64,000 nucleotides of DNA from Candidatus Aminicenantes bacterium (GTDB lineage: Bacteria > Acidobacteriota > Aminicenantia > Aminicenantales > CALLJL01), in the NCBI GenBank assembly GCA_026416195.1, contig JAOAFQ010000015.1:9332-73331 (forward strand), in the 5' to 3' direction. The position numbers were made by a program, and so were the translations under genes. Below the pieces are notes generated by a model that saw only the letters and a list, made by a program, of their open reading frames with translations, had not been told where the DNA came from and did no database searches. Shown one piece after another: positions 13,855-20,657 of the stretch; the first letter of the stretch is position 1; every line of letters starts with the position of its first letter.

Positions 13855-14751
13855 ATGAAAAAGAAATTAAAGAGAAAAAATGAAAAAGGAAAAGAAAAAA
13901 TAAAATTAAATAAGTCTAAATCGATCCTTTCAAAAATAGCTATGGTCAAATATCAAAGATTAAAGAAAACTTTGGCTTCAATGCCAGGAGCAGTGGTGGC
14001 CTTCTCAGGAGGGGTGGATAGTACTTTTCTTTTGCGGGTGGCCTCTGAGGTTTTAAAAGATAAGGTTTTGGCCGTCGTGGCTTCCTCGCTTACCTATCCT
14101 CAAGATGAGGTTCAACAAGCCCTTAACTTAGCCCGAGAAATGGAAGTCCGAGTACGGCTTATTGAGACCAAAGAAGTAGCCAACCCTATTTTTTCAGCTA
14201 ATCCACCTGATCGCTGTTACTATTGCAAGCAAGAGCTTTTTGCTCAACTCAAAAAAATTGCCCTCGAAGAAAATTTCCCTTTTATTCTCGATGGGACAAA
14301 TTATGATGATCGCCAAGATTATCGACCAGGCCTCAAAGCAGCCAAAGAATGGGGGGTTCGTTCTCCTTTAGCTGAAGTCAAATTGAAAAAAGAAGAAATA
14401 AGAGAACTTTCTCGATGGCTTGGTTTGACCACCTGGGATAAGCCGTCTATGGCTTGCTTAGCTTCCCGTTTTCCCTATTTTATGGAGATCAAACCGGAAA
14501 GATTGGAAAAAGTAGCTAAAGCTGAAAATTTTCTTCGTCAGGCCGGATTTAAACAAGTTAGAGTTCGTCATCAGAGCGATGAGCTTGTTCGCATCGAAAT
14601 TTTGCCTGAGCAATTTCCGTTAATTATTAATCCAGCCACAAGAGAAAATTTAGTCAACCAACTCAAATCACTGGGATATATTTATATAACTTTTGATCTT
14701 GAGGGTTACCGCCAAGGAAGTCTTAATCTCCTTCTTAAAAAGGTCAAATGA
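13855..14751 (+). CDS. PP-loop ATP pyrophosphatase, LarE/TIGR00268-like (ATP-dependent sulfur transferase family)
   Basis: PP-loop VAFSGGVDSTFLL, with a conserved ACLASRF region. About 30-aa Lys-rich N-terminal extension; an alternative start lies at the ATG at 13942. Confidence 0.6.
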   Translation: MKKKLKRKNEKGKEKIKLNKSKSILSKIAMVKYQRLKKTLASMPGAVVAFSGGVDSTFLLRVASEVLKDKVLAVVASSLTYPQDEVQQALNLAREMEVRVRLIETKEVANPIFSANPPDRCYYCKQELFAQLKKIALEENFPFILDGTNYDDRQDYRPGLKAAKEWGVRSPLAEVKLKKEEIRELSRWLGLTTWDKPSMACLASRFPYFMEIKPERLEKVAKAENFLRQAGFKQVRVRHQSDELVRIEILPEQFPLIINPATRENLVNQLKSLGYIYITFDLEGYRQGSLNLLLKKVK

Positions 14752-14764
14752 AAGATCGATTGTC

Positions 14765-14793
14765 ATCTCTATTAGAGATAATTTAAATTTTTT
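14765..14793. terminator. weak bidirectional hairpin between convergent genes
   Basis: ATCTCT-ATT-AGAGAT stem-loop followed by an AT-rich run ending in T6, between the LarE-like gene and the 2-hydroxyacid dehydrogenase. The stem is AT-rich and therefore weak. Confidence 0.25.
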
Positions 14794-15754
14794 ACCAAAC
14801 TAAGTTATCTGGTCTTTGACCCGAAAGCCCCTGGAGCAAATTGCGGACAGCGGTCATGGCCATTTGGAGACGGGTGGTTCTAGTAGCACTACCAATGTGA
14901 GGCAGAAGGACAACGTTTTCTAAGGAAAGCAGTTTATTTTCAATCTCTGGTTCTCTTTCATAGACATCAAGGCCGGCTCCCCAGATTTTTCCGTCTTTTA
15001 AAGCTGAGGCTAAAGCAGCTTCATCGACAATTGGGCCGCGGGCAACATTGATAAGAATCGCTGTTTTCTTCATTAAGGAAATTCTTTCCTGATTAATCAG
15101 ATGGTAGGTTGAAGGATTAAGGGAAGTATGGATGGTGATAATGTCGGACCTCTTTAAAAGTTCATCAAGAGGTAAATAAGTAGCTTGAAGATTTCTTTCT
15201 TCCTCGGCTGATAATCTTTTAAGATCATAATAAAAAATTTTCATAGAAAAACCTAAAGCCCGACGAGCCACAGCTTGGCCGATGCGGCCGAAGCCAATTA
15301 TTCCTAAAGTCTGGCCATAAACTTCTTGGCCAAGAAAAAGATCAAGGGCCCAGCCCCGAAAACGACCTGCTCGGGTAAAAAGGTCCGCTTGAGGAATCTT
15401 TCTGGCCACTGCCAGAATGAGGGCCCAGGTTAAATCAGCCGTAGCCTCAGTAAGTACCCCAGGAGTATTGGTGACAAAAATTCCCCTTTGTCGGCAAAAA
15501 TCCACATCAATATTATCATAGCCTACCGCACAATTAGCGATTATTTTGAGTCTTTTGGCCCGTTCGATTATTTCACGGTCAATTTGGTTGACCAGCAGGG
15601 TTAGAAGACCATCTTTGTCCTCCACTGCTTTCAAGATTTCTTCTTTTGAAAGGGGAGCCTCTGCCTGCCCACCTTCGACCTCTGCCTCTTGCTTTAGCCA
15701 TTCGAGAGCTTCGGGAAAAATACGTTGGGTAACAAAAACCTTTGGTCTCACCAT
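14792..15754 (-). CDS. D-isomer-specific 2-hydroxyacid dehydrogenase (glyoxylate/hydroxypyruvate reductase-like)
   Basis: GxGxxG NAD site GIIGFGRIGQAVARRA. Catalytic-domain architecture of the GhrB/D-glycerate dehydrogenase family, 320 aa. Confidence 0.8.
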   Translation of the reverse strand: MVRPKVFVTQRIFPEALEWLKQEAEVEGGQAEAPLSKEEILKAVEDKDGLLTLLVNQIDREIIERAKRLKIIANCAVGYDNIDVDFCRQRGIFVTNTPGVLTEATADLTWALILAVARKIPQADLFTRAGRFRGWALDLFLGQEVYGQTLGIIGFGRIGQAVARRALGFSMKIFYYDLKRLSAEEERNLQATYLPLDELLKRSDIITIHTSLNPSTYHLINQERISLMKKTAILINVARGPIVDEAALASALKDGKIWGAGLDVYEREPEIENKLLSLENVVLLPHIGSATRTTRLQMAMTAVRNLLQGLSGQRPDNLVW

Positions 15755-15834: not shown

Positions 15835-16575
15835 CTAGCTAAAATCGAGTAAAGGATAAAAATAATTTCGACAATTAGTCCAAAGGGACGGATAGGAAAA
15901 GCCCGAACGCCAACGAAAAGAGAAAAGTTCATCGCTAATGAGCAGGAGGGCAGCAGCCCTTAGCCTATAAAATTTGGCCAACGCTAACCAAGCTGAGGTT
16001 TCCATATCCACCGCTTCTGCCCCCTTTTTCTGGGCTCTTAAAAGCCAGTTTCTAGTCTCTCGATAAGGAGCATCTGTGGAAATAACAACAGCCCGCCGAA
16101 TCTCTAATCCCTGTTCTTCTAACCTTTTTTCTATCCTAGCAGTCAGTTCCTTGGAAGAAGGGATGATCTCCTGAAGGGGTAAATAATGTCGAGAGGTTCC
16201 TTCGTCGGCAATGGCTTTTTCGACCAAAATGGCTTGACCAATTTTAAGACTAGGAGAAAGGGAACCAGCAAAACCTAACAGAATAATTTCTTGCCCTCCT
16301 GAAGCAATAAGTCTTTCTCCAACCATAATGGCTAGAGGGGCACCTATGGCCCCATAAATGAGAACATTCCGAGGCAACAAATATAAGGTAAAGCCCTCAA
16401 ATTGCTTAAATTTGATGGCCCTTTTTTGAATTAAAGAAATTAAATCTACCTTAGGGGGAAGATAAGGAAGATGGATTATCAATTTACGGTGGAAACCGTG
16501 AACTGGTTGTGGCTTAATGATGGGCCTTTCCTTTTTTTCATTTTTCACGGGAGCAAAATAGCAAAAAAGAGGCAA
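15835..16575 (-). CDS. PNP/UDP-1 family nucleosidase (MTA/SAH/5'-deoxyadenosine nucleosidase or futalosine hydrolase-like)
   Basis: NVLIYGAIGAPLAIMVGERLIASGGQEIILLGFAGSL and VDMETSAWLALAKFYRLRAAALLLISDEL match the MtnN/Pfs-family core. The ATG at 16575 is only 17 nt from the divergent neighbour; an internal TTG near 16482 is the likelier start. Confidence 0.6.
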   Translation of the reverse strand: MPLFCYFAPVKNEKKERPIIKPQPVHGFHRKLIIHLPYLPPKVDLISLIQKRAIKFKQFEGFTLYLLPRNVLIYGAIGAPLAIMVGERLIASGGQEIILLGFAGSLSPSLKIGQAILVEKAIADEGTSRHYLPLQEIIPSSKELTARIEKRLEEQGLEIRRAVVISTDAPYRETRNWLLRAQKKGAEAVDMETSAWLALAKFYRLRAAALLLISDELFSFRWRSGFSYPSLWTNCRNYFYPLLDFS

Positions 16576-16592
16576 AATGAAAAGATGAGGAT

Positions 16593-17591
16593 TTGCTAAG
16601 TAAGGCCAAGCTATTTACAATGAAAAGGATGAAACTCCTTACAGTTTGTCTAGAAGCTATCAATCTTAAAGAGAAAAAATTTTGTCTTTCTCCTTTTATT
16701 GACTATCAGAAATTAGTTCCATCTATTGCCCGAGTAGGCTTACTTGTTCCTCCCCTTGTAAAATCAATTGATAATGGTCTGATGGTAATTTCAGGCTGGC
16801 GACGAGTCTTAGCTTGTTATGATTTAAAAATCGAGACGATCCCAATTTTATTGACTTCGGCAGAAGCCACTGATCTTGACCTCTTGGTCCAGGTTATCGA
16901 GGAAAATGTTACTACCCGATCTTTAAGCTTGGCAGAGAAGGCTGAAGCTATTTCTAAGCTTCAACAATTTGGCCTTTCTGAAGCAAAAATTATGGCTGAT
17001 TTTTTCCCCCGCTTTTCTTTGCCCCAAAAAAGAGAATATTTTCAACTTTTAACTCAAGTCGCGACTCAAGGATCTGAAGAATTAAAAAGATTTCTCCATC
17101 AACAAGAAATTTCAATGGAAGCCTTGGCAATATTTTTAACTTTTCCGCCCGAAGCTCAGAAAAAATTGATTCCCTTTCTACAAACCTTAAGTTATAGCCA
17201 ACGACGAGAAATTGTTTTTTATTTTCAGGAGATAGCGTCGAGAGACGGTTGTTCAGTTGAAGATCTTCTAAAAAATAAGGAAATACTAGCTTTTTTTGAT
17301 CATTCAGAAGTTTCGTCTCGCTCAAAAAGCGAAGCTCTGATTGAGTGGTTACGCCAAAAACGTTATCCTTTAATTACTAGTTGGAAAAAGGAAATAGACC
17401 AGACTTTAAGGGAGCTTTCCTGGCCCCAGGAGGTTCACCTGGCATACGATCCTACTTTTGAGCGTCCAGAAATCAAAGTTTGTTTTTCTTTTTGTAATCA
17501 GGCTCAATTTCTCTTCCTTTTGGATAAGTTGAAAAAAATTGGCGAAAGGCCAGCCTTTCGAAGACTTTTTCGAAGAACTTTTGAGGAATGA
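16593..17591 (+). CDS. ParB/Srx-like N-terminal domain protein (ParB-like nuclease/CTP-binding fold) with unknown C-terminal domain
   Basis: ParB-N-like segment LVPPLVKSIDNGLMVISGWRRVLACYDL (GxRR motif), followed by an HTH-like SLAEKAEAISKL. Possible later start at M10 or M13. Its stop overlaps the next gene (ATGA). Confidence 0.5.
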   Translation: MLSKAKLFTMKRMKLLTVCLEAINLKEKKFCLSPFIDYQKLVPSIARVGLLVPPLVKSIDNGLMVISGWRRVLACYDLKIETIPILLTSAEATDLDLLVQVIEENVTTRSLSLAEKAEAISKLQQFGLSEAKIMADFFPRFSLPQKREYFQLLTQVATQGSEELKRFLHQQEISMEALAIFLTFPPEAQKKLIPFLQTLSYSQRREIVFYFQEIASRDGCSVEDLLKNKEILAFFDHSEVSSRSKSEALIEWLRQKRYPLITSWKKEIDQTLRELSWPQEVHLAYDPTFERPEIKVCFSFCNQAQFLFLLDKLKKIGERPAFRRLFRRTFEE

Positions 17592-18685
17592 CTCGTTTTG
17601 ATTTTAAGATAATTTTTATCCATAAACAGGCCTTAAAATATCCGTTGACAGCCCGAATTTTGGCCCGTTTGCAAGTTCCGACTGAAATTATTGATGATTC
17701 TTTAGTCATTCGAGAAGAAATTGAAAAATCACCTGATCCTATAGCCGCAGGTAAAAAAATTCTTTATTTAGCCCAGCAAAAAGGAAAATTTATTAAACCT
17801 TGTCCTTGTACGCCTCGAATGATTCGTTGTGGTTATCTAATTATTAACTCAATTTTAGGGTGTCCAATCGATTGTTCCTACTGTATCCTTCAGGCTTATC
17901 TTGATGATCCTTGGATAACCATTTTTGTCGATGAAGATAAACTCGAAAATAGCTTGAGGCCCTTGCTTAAGGCATCTTTACCAGCCGGCCTAAGAATTGG
18001 TCCGGGTGAATTAACGGATTCCTTAGCTTTAGAGCCTTACACTAGACAAGCTGAAAGATTAGCCCAACTTTTTTATAGAAGTTCCCGCACAATTTTAGAA
18101 TTAAAAACAAAGACGACTAATATTGACTCTTGGCTTGACTGGCCACCGTCACCTAATATTGTCTTCTCCTGGTCTCTTAATGCTGAAACTATTGCTAAAG
18201 AGGAGGAGAAAGGGGCGCCACCAGTGGGTGAGAGAATCAGAGCTGCTGCTCAGCTCGCAATCAGAGGCCATCAGGTAGGTTTTCATTTTGATCCCTTGAT
18301 TTATTTTGAAGGTTGGGAAAGGGAATATGAAAAAGTTATTAAAGAGCTCTTTGCCTTAATTCCATCTAAGCTTATCCGTTGGATTAGTCTTGGAGCATTA
18401 CGCTACCCTCTTAATTTCCGAAAAATTATTCTTTTGAGATTTCGCCACAAAGCCATTTTTGCTAGCGAAATGATTATCGGCCGAGATGGTAAATTTAGAT
18501 ACTTTAAGCCTTTACGCATAAAACTTTATACCCGCATTTATGAGATGATCAGAGATTATGGGGGAGAAAACCTACCACTTTATCTTTGTATGGAAGATGA
18601 GGAAGTTTGGGAGTTAATTTTAAAGAAAAAACCGGAGAGGAGAAAAGACCTTTTTCTTCTTTTCTCCCCTCCGGTAAATAATTAG
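17588..18685 (+). CDS. radical SAM protein, spore-photoproduct-lyase (SplB/COG1533 DNA repair photolyase) family
   Basis: CxxxCxxC motif GCPIDCSYCILQAYL at about residue 92, 365 aa. Overall SplB-like size and motif placement. Confidence 0.65.
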   Translation: MTRFDFKIIFIHKQALKYPLTARILARLQVPTEIIDDSLVIREEIEKSPDPIAAGKKILYLAQQKGKFIKPCPCTPRMIRCGYLIINSILGCPIDCSYCILQAYLDDPWITIFVDEDKLENSLRPLLKASLPAGLRIGPGELTDSLALEPYTRQAERLAQLFYRSSRTILELKTKTTNIDSWLDWPPSPNIVFSWSLNAETIAKEEEKGAPPVGERIRAAAQLAIRGHQVGFHFDPLIYFEGWEREYEKVIKELFALIPSKLIRWISLGALRYPLNFRKIILLRFRHKAIFASEMIIGRDGKFRYFKPLRIKLYTRIYEMIRDYGGENLPLYLCMEDEEVWELILKKKPERRKDLFLLFSPPVNN

Positions 18686-19901: not shown

Positions 19902-20657
19902 TTATTTCAGCTGAAATCTTACCGTTACTGTAAAGATAACGGGCCTTGGCCGTCCGTTGATGATCATTGGCTCATAAACCCATTGTCTGACAGCATCAAT
20001 CGCGGCTTGGTCGAGAAGAGGAATGGAGCGGAGAACTTTAACCTCGCGGACGCGACCATAAATATCTGTAGTGCATTCAAGAATGACAATTCCTTCTACT
20101 CGGGCTTGTCGAGCGATTTCAGGATAAACTGGGTCGACTTTATGGATAAGTTTAGGTGGTTTAATTTCACCAATAGCTCTAACAGGAGCTTCAACTTCAC
20201 CCACAACTCCCCCCAGGACACCACCAACCACGCCGCCCAGAACGCCACCAACAACACCGCCCTCAACGCCACCTTCAACCCCGCCTTCGACGCCGAAATC
20301 AGAGAGTTGTTCTTCCGCAATTTCTTGAGGTATTTCGACTGGAGCAATCAGTTTGCCCGGCTGAATAGTTGTCTGCGTTTGAACCGGTTTTATTCTGGTT
20401 TTGGCTTCAGATGATCTTTTTTTAGCTGGAGGCGGAGGTGGAGGTGGAGGTGGTGGTGGAGGGGCCAAGAAAGCACTATAAACTTCAACCTTAGGTAATT
20501 GGCCAGTTGAAAGAAGAGGAATAACAATCATAGCCAAAATAAGAATCGCATGAATAACTATTGCAATCGGAAAAGCCAAGGCTTTACGGCCGGTTGCTTT
20601 CTCACTATGGTAAAAAGAATCTTTAAAGAGGCGCGGGATTTGATTTTTCTCAGCCAT
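19902..20657 (-). CDS. tonB: energy transducer TonB
   Basis: N-terminal TM anchor, Pro12 linker, (GGVx)8 repeat, and C-terminal TonB domain ARVEGIVILECTTDIYGRVREVKVLRSIPLLDQAAIDAVRQWVYEP. Confidence 0.8.
   Translation of the reverse strand: MAEKNQIPRLFKDSFYHSEKATGRKALAFPIAIVIHAILILAMIVIPLLSTGQLPKVEVYSAFLAPPPPPPPPPPPPAKKRSSEAKTRIKPVQTQTTIQPGKLIAPVEIPQEIAEEQLSDFGVEGGVEGGVEGGVVGGVLGGVVGGVLGGVVGEVEAPVRAIGEIKPPKLIHKVDPVYPEIARQARVEGIVILECTTDIYGRVREVKVLRSIPLLDQAAIDAVRQWVYEPMIINGRPRPVIFTVTVRFQLK
20199..20294. repeat. imperfect 12-nt tandem repeats encoding (GGVx)8 inside tonB
   Basis: Plus strand reads ...CACCACCAACCACGCCGCCCAGAACGCCACCAACAACACCGCC..., giving the protein GVEGGVEGGVEGGVVGGVLGGVVGGVLGGVVG. 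Confidence 0.6.
20427..20462. repeat. (GGN)12/(CCN)12 triplet repeat encoding the Pro12 linker of TonB
   Basis: Plus strand reads ggaggcggaggtggaggtggaggtggtggtggagg. Confidence 0.6.

Follow-up and report, generated by a model that had tools for sequence, protein, structure and literature searches.

Spore photoproduct lyase (SPL, SplB) is to our knowledge the only radical S-adenosylmethionine (SAM) enzyme that repairs DNA directly, and is considered peculiar to endospores. Here, we present a three-gene locus (positions 15835-18685) from a metagenome-assembled genome of Candidatus Aminicenantes, in which an enzyme with the SPL fold is encoded next to a ParB-like protein and a nucleosidase of the PNP_UDP_1 family. 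All coordinates refer to the window, i.e. the whole 64-kb stretch of DNA that was analysed. The enzyme belongs to a large sister clade of SPL in non-sporulating anaerobes that has its own invariant active-site residues and its own, apparently obligatory partner module, and we tentatively propose, with a little less than even confidence, that the locus is one copy of a widespread, uncharacterised radical-SAM system that is directed at DNA and consumes SAM stoichiometrically. The single domains belong to known families. What appears to be undescribed is an SPL-fold enzyme with an adaptor module that usually resides on a ParB-like protein, together with recurrent nucleosidase fusions and with family-2 glycosyltransferase (GT2) and oxidoreductase partners across phyla. 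The initial annotation of this DNA had already called the cassette possibly undescribed, and no description of the ParB-like/SPL-like pairing was found in the full-text literature; most subscription journals lie outside that coverage, so this absence is not proof.

Several described systems resemble parts of the locus. HpnH, HpnG, an unidentified reductase and the GT2 enzyme HpnI in bacteriohopanepolyol synthesis, as well as MqnE and MqnB in the futalosine pathway, follow an analogous logic, with genetic coupling between a radical SAM enzyme and its dedicated PNP_UDP_1 nucleosidase; in some lineages GT2 and a reductase accompany the system described here as well. It differs from these pathways in that its enzyme belongs to the SPL family, its nucleosidase remains far under the cutoffs of HpnG and MqnB, it comes without genes for hopanoids or menaquinone and the partners include DNA-binding and DNA-cleaving proteins. 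DndB and DpdB are likewise ParB-like proteins in operons of enzymes that act chemically on DNA, but these operons carry out phosphorothioation and 7-deazaguanine insertion and have neither an SPL-like radical SAM partner nor the adaptor module. The ParB-like protein of the window shares with the CTP-dependent clamps ParB, Noc and KorB a ParB/Srx N domain with three nucleotide-binding boxes (SI..G...P..V, GxRR and ENxxR), followed by a helical domain that is probably of the helix-turn-helix (HTH) type. In contrast with them it has no adjacent ParA, the Glu of GERR is replaced by Trp and the Gln of box I by Val, an SPL-adaptor module with an alpha/beta tail takes the place of the canonical C-terminal dimerisation domain, and its scores remain under the Pfam and TIGR00180 cutoffs. 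MtnN/Pfs has in common with the nucleosidase the PNP_UDP_1 fold, the DME and (I/V)SD motifs and the lack of the phosphorylase phosphate-binding Arg, and a role in the removal of 5'-deoxyadenosine (5'-dA) is plausible. However, MtnN is a housekeeping enzyme, whereas the window-type nucleosidase is dedicated to one radical SAM enzyme, to which it is fused in at least two and probably three lineages.

Organisation of the locus

The three genes that the initial annotation had reported are all present according to the listing of open reading frames (ORFs) and profile searches. Their features are as follows.

15835-16575, minus strand: PNP_UDP_1-family nucleosidase, 246 amino acids (aa) from a TTG start (Pfam PF01048, E = 3.5e-29)
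16576-16628, no strand: short divergent intergenic region between the nucleosidase and the ParB-like gene
16629-17591, plus strand: ParB-like gene, 320 aa from Met13, divergent from the nucleosidase
16629-16928, plus strand: N-terminal ParB/Srx domain of the ParB-like protein (aa 1-100), from profile, alignment and fold matches
16929-17183, plus strand: central helical HTH-like region (about aa 101-185), from the AlphaFold model compared with ParB, Noc and KorB
17184-17417, plus strand: adaptor module (aa 186-263), from hhalign and hidden Markov model (HMM) homology to N-extensions of SPL-like proteins
17418-17591, plus strand: C-terminal alpha/beta tail (aa 264-320) and stop codon, from alignment and model
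17588-18685, plus strand: SPL-family radical SAM enzyme, 365 aa (PF20903, 78 bits; SPL fold)

Counted from a TTG, the ParB-like ORF comprises 332 aa (16593-17591, plus strand) and includes GLMVISGWRRVLACYDL; by the NCBI record of P0001, an identical protein, and by comparison with aligned homologues it starts at Met13 (16629, 320 aa) or possibly at Met10 (16620). The 365-aa ORF of the enzyme includes CPIDCSYCILQAYL. At the junction, GAGGAATGACTC, the TGA of the ParB-like gene (17589-17591) and the ATG of the SPL-like gene (17588-17590) form the ATGA overlap that had been noted before. The ParB-like protein is thus encoded immediately upstream of the enzyme and translationally coupled to it. 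The core of the system is the SPL-fold enzyme plus a dedicated helical adaptor module of about 80 aa. This module forms the C-terminal part of the ParB-like protein in Aminicenantes, KSB1 and Schekmanbacteria and is elsewhere fused straight to the enzyme.

The adaptor module and gene fusions

Typical conserved regions of the module (aa 186-263 of the ParB-like protein) are the motifs ...RREIvfyfqEIasRD... and ...WLRqkRYPL.... When the N-terminal extensions of 15 fused SPL-like proteins were compared with the ParB-like alignment, hhalign returned a probability of 96.8% (E = 2.3e-10). An HMM built from these extensions only finds the window ParB-like protein at aa 186-267 (E = 1.2e-15), the ParB-like proteins of KSB1 and Schekmanbacteria at about 1e-10 and the nucleosidase fusions at 1e-20 to 1e-24. 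This homology means that the ParB-like protein carries a dedicated SPL-adaptor module, and the fusion of the module to the enzyme, as read from the sequences, implies a physical partnership rather than regulation.

Fusions were sought among the best 150 representatives of the SPL-like clade. P0174 (705 aa) is a full fusion of a ParB-like and an SPL-like protein with a low-complexity linker, and it also matches the ParB-like C-terminal tail. P0206 from Elusimicrobia and P0227 from another lineage combine a PNP_UDP_1 domain, the module and the SPL-like domain; their nucleosidase domains reach 42.3 and 36 bits (Pfam gathering score 25.1), and a profile of the Aminicenantes nucleosidase finds them with E = 1e-11. 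At least ten further SPL-like representatives bear only an N-terminal extension of about 100 aa, i.e. the module without ParB N and HTH domains. Fusions therefore connect the SPL-like enzyme with the ParB-like protein as well as with the nucleosidase, which is stronger evidence of linkage than the initial annotation anticipated.

A more distant case is found in Fusobacterium vincentii SB055 (NZ_CP084075.1, L019:4107-5978). Its 623-aa protein has a C-terminal half of the SPL family (PF20903, E = 1e-16; 28% identical to the window enzyme) and an N-terminal half with weak matches to nucleosidases (MTAN 1e-4, nucleosidase 4.5e-4, futalosine hydrolase 5.6e-4); a co-linear hhalign match spans 133 columns (E = 3e-3), and BLASTP finds one Aminicenantes nucleosidase at 2e-5. 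Judged from these matches it is probably a third fusion, in which a degenerate PNP_UDP_1/MTAN-like domain is joined to an SPL-family domain. The extension HMM detects no adaptor module in it and a ParB-like partner is also absent. A divergent upstream ORF of 435 aa with a DGHHK motif was considered as a ParB-like candidate and rejected (hhalign probability 0.2), as was, in locus L091, an ORF of 340 aa that immediately precedes the SPL-like gene (probability 0.1). An SDR gene lies 3' of the Fusobacterium fusion (6191-6907 of L019). The record NZ_CP084075.1 is listed in PLSDB as a 2.1-Mb 'plasmid' and is clearly a mislabelled chromosome.

Two distant ParB-like proteins, P0139 (L012:539-1474) and P0138 (L015:706-1641), are 22-24% identical and keep the module (HMM E about 1e-6). 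Their genes adjoin no SPL-like gene and are located between an HU gene and a convergent ribD-nrdR pair. The module may work with other partners as well, or these genomes may encode the SPL-like enzyme at another site.

The SPL-like radical SAM enzyme

The window enzyme reaches 78.1 bits in the SPL family (PF20903, gathering score 27) and stays far below the more specific models TIGR04070 (103.7 bits versus a cutoff of 400) and TIGR03886 (33.1 versus 437.55). Its AlphaFold model (pLDDT 92.3, pTM 0.92) was matched by Foldseek to Geobacillus SPL 4FHE with E = 3e-23, TM 0.79/0.84 and rmsd 3.1 Å over about 346 columns; the next-best fold family, the PFL-activating enzyme, follows at E = 9e-5 (TM 0.44) and MqnE at about 6e-3. 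The proposed membership in an SplB/COG1533-like radical SAM family consequently holds, as the protein clusters with SPL and with no other solved family.

In comparison with genuine SplB (TIGR04070; PDB 4FHC-4FHG, 4K9R, 4RH0) the enzyme is only about 20-22% identical, far under the equivalog cutoff, but it keeps the fold, the CxxxCxxC motif followed by the SAM-contacting Tyr (CxYC), the Lys and Ser for SAM, the Arg and Lys at the intra-lesion phosphate and a beta-hairpin in the same place. Residues were mapped by alignment to SPL (Gt numbering) and counted over 150 cluster representatives. The cluster motif is C92-x3-C96-x2-C99 (nt 17861-17884), with each Cys present in 148-149 of the 150. Gt Tyr96, which contacts SAM, corresponds to Y98 (148/150), Lys174 and Ser195 at the SAM carboxylate to K175 (150/150) and S196 (144/150), and Arg273 and Lys309 at the intra-lesion phosphate to R272 (150/150) and K302 (148/150). 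In contrast, the hydrogen-atom donor Cys140 is replaced by E141 (Glu in 147/150) and the radical-relay Tyr98 by I100, at a variable position with Ile in 62, Phe in 44, Tyr in 29 and Val in 10 representatives. The tip of the hairpin, which is two residues shorter, has D300 instead of Tyr305 (Asp in 139/150). The clade possesses its own near-invariant residues, namely C72 (145), C81 (146), H233 (150), D235 (150) and C334-M-E (149 of 150) besides E141, and the last motif sits in a C-terminal extension of about 40 aa that genuine SPLs do not have. C72 aligns one residue off the clostridial hydrogen-donor Cys (Gt Ser76; Cys77 in clostridia), beside a six-residue insertion, and from this alignment it could act as hydrogen donor. 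The roles of the SPL residues are taken from PMC3467042 and PMC3742179, the strict conservation of Tyr98 and the clostridial donor Cys from PMC3467042.

Since the Cys140/Tyr98 relay is missing and the clade has invariant residues of its own, the window enzyme is by its sequence not an orthologue of spore photoproduct lyase. In Bacillus SPL the mutants Y99F and C141A produce 5'-dA in a 1:1 ratio per repair (PMC3742179). By analogy, the natural lack of both relay residues speaks for stoichiometric use of SAM, as a co-substrate, in this clade.

An exhaustive profile search of 1.84 billion cluster representatives yielded 2842 relatives, at least 932 of which (50%-identity clusters) had E <= 1e-30. 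Close clusters belong to Aminicenantes and other Acidobacteriota, KSB1, Schekmanbacteria and Elusimicrobia; a more distant branch of the SPL family occurs in Fusobacterium. The carriers are non-sporulating, mostly uncultured anaerobes from sediments, aquifers and guts, and they differ from the hosts of SplB also by the absence of a SASP/A-DNA context and of splA. In public annotations the proteins appear as "hypothetical protein", "radical SAM protein", "spore photoproduct lyase" or "ParB N-terminal domain-containing protein". The SPL-family loci of Deinococcus, Aureimonas, C. botulinum and B. velezensis have neither ParB nor PNP as a neighbour, so the association is specific to the SPL-like clade.

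The ParB-like protein

A ParB/Srx-type N-terminal domain with a GxRR motif and an HTH-like segment had been read from the sequence in the initial annotation; the former is substantiated here and the latter is indicated by the structural model. The window protein reaches 20.2 bits with ParB_N (PF02195), under the gathering score of 26.3, and 33.1 bits with TIGR00180 (E = 4e-8; cutoff 58.45); support comes also from the Noc and RepB models and from Thermus Spo0J in the PDB. Box I reads SIarvGLLvPPLV, box II is G56-W57-R58-R59 and box III is E91-E92-N93...R97-x-LSLAE. Among 12 homologues (40-62% identical) these boxes are invariant or nearly so (SI..xG.L.PP.V, G-W-(R/K)-R and E-E-N-x3-R-x-L-S-L-A-E), and about 30 more residues are invariant across the C-terminal 200 aa, with W-P...D-P-x-F-E and LFRR as invariant motifs of the tail. 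The AlphaFold model (pLDDT 88.5) was matched by Foldseek to Myxococcus ParB bound to CDP or CTPgammaS, Noc, KorB and Spo0J with probability 1.0 over about 200-260 columns, which cover the N domain and the helical DNA-binding domain (PDB 7BNK, 7NFU and 8QA9, E about 1e-6; the rmsd is high owing to domain orientation). The N domain is complete and is followed by a putative HTH, so the protein is not a degenerate fragment.

Gln52 (box I) and Glu93 (GERR) of Myxococcus ParB are residues of CTP hydrolysis, which accords with the titles of PDB entries 7BNR and 7O0N, in which the Q52A and E93A mutants were crystallised with nucleotide. The aligned positions of the window protein are Val and an invariant Trp, from which we infer that the ParB-like protein would bind nucleotide but hydrolyse it little or not at all. 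In none of the loci examined does a ParA-like gene adjoin the ParB-like one.

The ParB-like protein has evolved much faster than the SPL-like enzyme. For this reason a word-seeded search for its homologues (13-19 matches) missed most partners, and such low counts are not a measure of rarity. A scan of reference-genome contigs with the ParB-like alignment found three loci only, all close relatives, the back-translated patterns being too specific. Taxonomic breadth was therefore taken from the representative search and cluster look-ups.

The nucleosidase

The divergent gene had been described as a PNP/UDP-1 nucleosidase with an MtnN/Pfs-like core. The family assignment stands (PNP_UDP_1, 102 bits versus a gathering score of 25.1), whereas the likeness to MtnN does not: NF004079 (MtnN) gives 27.5 bits versus 169, and TIGR01704 is absent from the matches up to E = 1. 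The best NCBIfam matches, DeoD, AMP nucleosidase and HpnG, are all far under their cutoffs; the HpnG model TIGR03468 yields 43.6 bits (E = 2.5e-11) versus 187.1 and the futalosine hydrolase model TIGR03664 yields 20.5 versus 124.7. The protein shows the motifs GF(A/C)GS, VDMETSA and (I/V)SD and lacks an Arg where DeoD binds phosphate. Six homologues share V189-D190-M191-E192-T193-S194 and S214-D215 without exception; by analogy with the family, (D/E)ME would be ribose-binding and the Asp of (I/V)SD catalytic. Identity amounts to 38% with the Schekmanbacteria neighbour and 27% with the N-terminal domains of P0206 and P0227. Judged by these comparisons the nucleosidase is a distinct PNP_UDP_1 subfamily and not an MtnN/Pfs orthologue. 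Clearance of the by-product 5'-dA is one of two readings of its role; the other is that it would trim an adenosylated product, as HpnG and MqnB do.

Gene linkage across genomes

Every Aminicenantes locus examined shows the order dxr, rseP, ispG, larE, <2-Hacid_dh, <PNP, ParB>, SPL>, <exbD, <exbB, <tonB, <secF, <secD, <yajC, <tgt (< and > give the gene direction). This order is constant over more than 12 kb, down to 46% identity of the SPL-like and 32% of the ParB-like protein, and owing to such frozen synteny adjacency within the phylum is uninformative alone. We scanned 80 metagenomic loci with custom HMMs; in 55 of them the upstream sequence extends over at least 1 kb. Of these 55, 45 have a co-directional ParB-like gene immediately 5' of the SPL-like gene (20/20 Aminicenantes-type loci and 25/35 others). 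Among the remaining ten, one has the module fused to the enzyme, two have a ParB-like gene nearby that is not adjacent, three have GT2 directly upstream without ParB and four have neither. The ParB-SPL junctions of the Aminicenantes type lie mostly between -8 and +6 nt. GT2 precedes ParB in 18 of the 25 ParB-containing loci of other types. The nucleosidase, counted in loci with at least 2.5 kb of upstream sequence, is present in 15/16 of the Aminicenantes type and in 0/22 others. Rearranged Aminicenantes loci keep the genes together as larE>PNP>ParB>SPL (L043, L049), PNP>ParB>SPL (L041) or larE>2-Hacid_dh>ParB>SPL (L048). Outside this phylum and at the P0162 locus the following arrangements were found.

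KSB1: GT2 > ParB-like > SPL-like ... AKR > ispH
Schekmanbacteria: dxr, PP-loop, <PNP, then GT2 > ParB-like > SPL-like
Elusimicrobia: ATP-grasp > PNP-module-SPL > AKR (overlapping)
P0162 locus: Pyr_redox > GT2 > module-SPL (4-nt overlaps)

Because of the fusions, the recurrence with unrelated flanks in KSB1 and Schekmanbacteria and the cohesion through rearrangements, the sequences indicate that PNP, ParB-like and SPL-like proteins are functionally linked, independent of the phylum-wide synteny. The adjacency is kept in Aminicenantes, KSB1, Schekmanbacteria and many unassigned lineages. The description of the cassette as small is not tenable, as elsewhere GT2, NAD(P)-oxidoreductases and nucleases are included.

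Further partner genes

Two genes precede the core locus in the window.

14792-15754, minus strand: D-2-hydroxyacid dehydrogenase, glyoxylate-reductase-like, 3' of the nucleosidase and on its strand (NCBIfam NF009714, 390 bits versus a cutoff of 455)
13855-14751, plus strand: LarE-family PP-loop ATPase, a bona fide sulfur transferase of this family (TIGR00268, 327.6 bits versus a cutoff of 150)

NAD(P)-oxidoreductases of three unrelated families recur at these loci, namely 2-Hacid_dh in Aminicenantes, AKR in KSB1, Elusimicrobia and the P0162 locus, and SDR in L059, L064, Fusobacterium and MT835514. The 2-Hacid_dh gene overlaps or abuts the nucleosidase gene in L014, L016, L033 and L034 and lies next to ParB-SPL after the rearrangement in L048; on this positional evidence the dehydrogenase of the window is probably an accessory oxidoreductase. 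The gene larE is co-directional with and abuts PNP-ParB-SPL in L043 and L049, and a ThiI-like PP-loop gene adjoins the nucleosidase in Schekmanbacteria (L026); LarE is a syntenic neighbour, and PP-loop proteins are possible members of the system. GT2 is a generic family-2 glycosyltransferase that resembles TuaG, EpsD and WcaA, all under cutoff.

Downstream, a Y1/HUH protein (REP-associated tyrosine transposase-like, IS200/Y1) at L059:6051-6611 overlaps the SPL-like stop codon by 4 nt. An ORF of 185-206 aa stands right after the SPL-like gene in eight loci (L059, L068, L081, L098, L099, L101, L105 and L108), the domain assignment coming from the L059 copy. Its fixed position is more suggestive of a domesticated HUH nuclease than of a mobile element. 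The SPL-like stop is overlapped in another lineage (L060, L102) by an SNase nuclease that has a weak Ada-type Zn domain, and in L095 an SSB gene lies about 100 nt 3' of the SPL-like gene.

Searches of PADLOC-DB v2 gave no match at E <= 1e-3 for the nucleosidase, the ParB-like and SPL-like proteins, GT2 or the Y1 protein. With this result and the housekeeping, phylum-wide syntenic location, an anti-phage defence system was rejected. A phage origin was also rejected, as a search of 2.9 million viral contigs yielded no member of the clade. The only phage records to match were two distant, unverified ones, and one of them looks bacterial. This record (L113; MT835514.1, 'UNVERIFIED: Bacteriophage sp.', human faeces) has the order SDR > orf160 > Fusobacterium-type SPL-like gene with nearby cation-efflux-like and B12/radical SAM-like genes, and looks like a bacterial contig, not a phage.

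Proposed function and alternative explanations

Gene linkage, domain architecture, fold and residue pattern are observed in the loci described above. For the function we infer that the substrate is DNA, that the ParB-like protein provides a CTP switch, that SAM is used stoichiometrically and that the nucleosidase acts on an adenosyl compound. The evidence for DNA is circumstantial and comes from the ParB-like fold including a probable HTH and from the Y1/HUH, SNase and SSB neighbours. In the proposed mechanism the ParB-like protein would bind CTP, which it would probably hydrolyse poorly, as well as DNA, and would hold or deliver the radical SAM enzyme via the adaptor module. The enzyme would flip out a pyrimidine-type target and attack it with the 5'-deoxyadenosyl radical. 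Without the Cys140/Tyr98 relay that regenerates SAM in SPL, each turnover should leave an adenosyl-containing product, from which the dedicated nucleosidase would cleave adenine, and a neighbouring NAD(P)-oxidoreductase would deal with the released deoxy-sugar.

Several points weigh against this proposal. The nucleosidase is absent from all 22 non-Aminicenantes-type loci with at least 2.5 kb upstream and, if needed there, would have to be encoded elsewhere or replaced by a housekeeping enzyme. Outside Aminicenantes GT2 is at least as tightly linked as ParB (18/25, plus GT2-SPL pairs without ParB), and it is unexplained by a simple repair model. Some lineages have the enzyme without a nearby ParB-like gene (4/35 loci) or with the adaptor module only, which means that ParB is not the universal means of DNA targeting. 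The proximity of nucleases and SSB could merely reflect synteny within single lineages. From their conservation, C72, C81 and C334 may be ligands of a second metal centre, which would suggest a chemistry different from that of SPL. Because the carriers live in dark, anoxic habitats, the classic UV spore photoproduct is unlikely as substrate. Finally, for every member the whole proposal is drawn from sequences and models.

Among the alternatives, adjacency without function is scarcely credible. The region from dxr, rseP and ispG to secDF, yajC and tgt is frozen in the synteny of Aminicenantes, with the same flanks over more than 12 kb at every locus examined. Nevertheless, the ParB-SPL, module-SPL and PNP-module-SPL fusions, the recurrence of the pair in KSB1 and Schekmanbacteria with unrelated flanks and the joint persistence of PNP, ParB and SPL through local rearrangements speak against it; for ParB-SPL it is already refuted and for the nucleosidase largely so. 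A radical adenosylation pathway, possibly for DNA hypermodification, is the chief, though still unlikely, alternative. In it the enzyme would add the 5'-deoxyadenosyl radical to an sp2 carbon, e.g. C6 of a DNA pyrimidine, the nucleosidase would remove adenine, the NAD(P)-oxidoreductase would reduce the ribose to a polyol and GT2 would glycosylate it. This would account for every recurrent partner at once: the nucleosidase fused or adjacent to the enzyme, whose sub-threshold matches include HpnG (2.5e-11) and futalosine hydrolase (the latter matched by the Fusobacterium N-domain too), the oxidoreductases of three unrelated families, and GT2, which lies directly upstream in 18/25 loci and also by SPL-like genes without ParB. 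The loss of the hydrogen donor and Tyr relay with the gain of invariant E141, H233 and D235 fits a changed chemistry, and the DNA-acting neighbours suggest a DNA acceptor. However, the known adenosylating enzymes MqnE and HpnH belong to other radical SAM subfamilies (MqnE matches the model weakly, E about 6e-3) and we know of no SPL-family member that adenosylates. Moreover the nucleosidase is missing from most GT2 loci (0/22) and the full trio is rare, Schekmanbacteria being the one clear case; no member of the clade turned up in viral contigs, a common setting of DNA hypermodification systems; and a saturated C6 adduct would disrupt base pairing. Somewhat more doubtful again is the specific version in which the enzyme would adenosylate a pyrimidine of DNA (or RNA), the nucleosidase would take off adenine, the reductase would open the sugar and GT2 would glycosylate it, to yield a C-linked polyol or glycosyl hypermodified base in chromosomes of several anaerobic phyla, at sites chosen by the CTP-binding ParB-like protein. 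If true, this would amount to a novel class of DNA modification that follows the logic of the bacteriohopanepolyol side chain, and the system could prove categorically new should the adenosylation reading be right.

An alternative with no nucleic acid substrate is about as probable as the adenosylation pathway. Here the enzyme, GT2 and the oxidoreductases would modify a sugar, a sugar nucleotide or an envelope precursor, and the ParB-like protein would be a KorB-like transcription factor or a nucleotide-binding scaffold. It draws on the resemblance of GT2 to the polysaccharide glycosyltransferases TuaG, EpsD and WcaA (under cutoff), on sugar epimerases, dehydratases and AKR upstream in the P0162 locus, on ParB/Srx domains in SerK, SbnI and sulfiredoxin (kinases and non-DNA enzymes, lower in the fold list) and on the many lineages that do without ParB N and HTH domains. 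But fusion of the adaptor module to the enzyme implies a physical partnership, in structural comparison the DNA-binding CTPases ParB, Noc and KorB match best, with their HTH included, the dinucleotide-phosphate residues of SPL are kept in 148-150 of 150 representatives, and nucleases and an SSB gene recur downstream. That the enzyme is a genuine spore photoproduct (or thymine-dimer) lyase, which would repair 5-thyminyl-5,6-dihydrothymine in non-sporulators with a clostridial-type Cys as hydrogen donor and the ParB-like protein as DNA-scanning helper only, is very unlikely. The fold is that of SPL throughout, C72 lies within one residue of the clostridial donor Cys, Y98 (Gt Y96; 148/150), R272 (150/150) and K302 (148/150) are kept and JGI labels many members as spore photoproduct lyase. 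Against this stand the 103.7 versus 400 bits with TIGR04070, Tyr in only 29/150 at the Tyr98 position (strictly conserved in SPL according to PMC3467042), Asp in 139/150 at the Tyr305 position, the new invariant E141, H233, D235 and C334 with the C-terminal extension, the non-sporulating anaerobic carriers without SASP/A-DNA context or splA, and partners (GT2, nucleosidase, oxidoreductase) without a role in spore photoproduct repair.

The clade raises the questions which radical chemistry anaerobes perform on DNA in the dark, whether a ParB-type CTP switch can be an enzyme-targeting subunit, and whether a nucleosidase is fused to a radical SAM enzyme for by-product clearance or for trimming of an adenosylated product. 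For the nucleosidase question only, Fusobacterium as a cultivable genus offers a practical entry with its distant nucleosidase-SPL fusion, which is without ParB-like partner and module.

Promoter region and minor features

A sigma-70-like TTGCTA-17-TACAAT sequence at 16593-16621 ends 7 nt 5' of the ATG at 16629; in the scan of the window the counts of promoter-like and terminator-like sites showed no excess over the shuffled expectation. A -10-like hexamer (TACAAT or TAGAAT) lies 5-9 nt 5' of the ParB-like ATG in the window (16616-16631) and in L040, L044, L045, L050 and L052, and its position suggests that the ParB-like transcript may be leaderless or near-leaderless. No common inverted repeat, operator or parS-like palindrome was seen in the PNP|ParB intergenic regions of related loci. 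In L045 and L050 this region is expanded from about 50 nt to 300-430 nt by tandem copies of a REP-like element (GATTGCCGCGC...GCTCGTAATGACA), which shows that insertions between the divergent genes are tolerated in the promoter region.

A perfect 7-bp GC-rich hairpin at 17543-17560 (CGAAAGG-CCAG-CCTTTCG), with a T-rich stretch after it, is located within the 3' end of the ParB-like gene and 28 nt 5' of the start of the SPL-like gene. It could modulate read-through or coupling or be incidental to the conserved ...RPAFRRLFRR peptide. Further downstream a TonB-like protein (19902-20657, minus strand), 3' of ExbB and ExbD, contains a run of 12 prolines and repeated GGV(E/V/L)GGV units, a low-complexity composition that is ordinary in TonB linkers.

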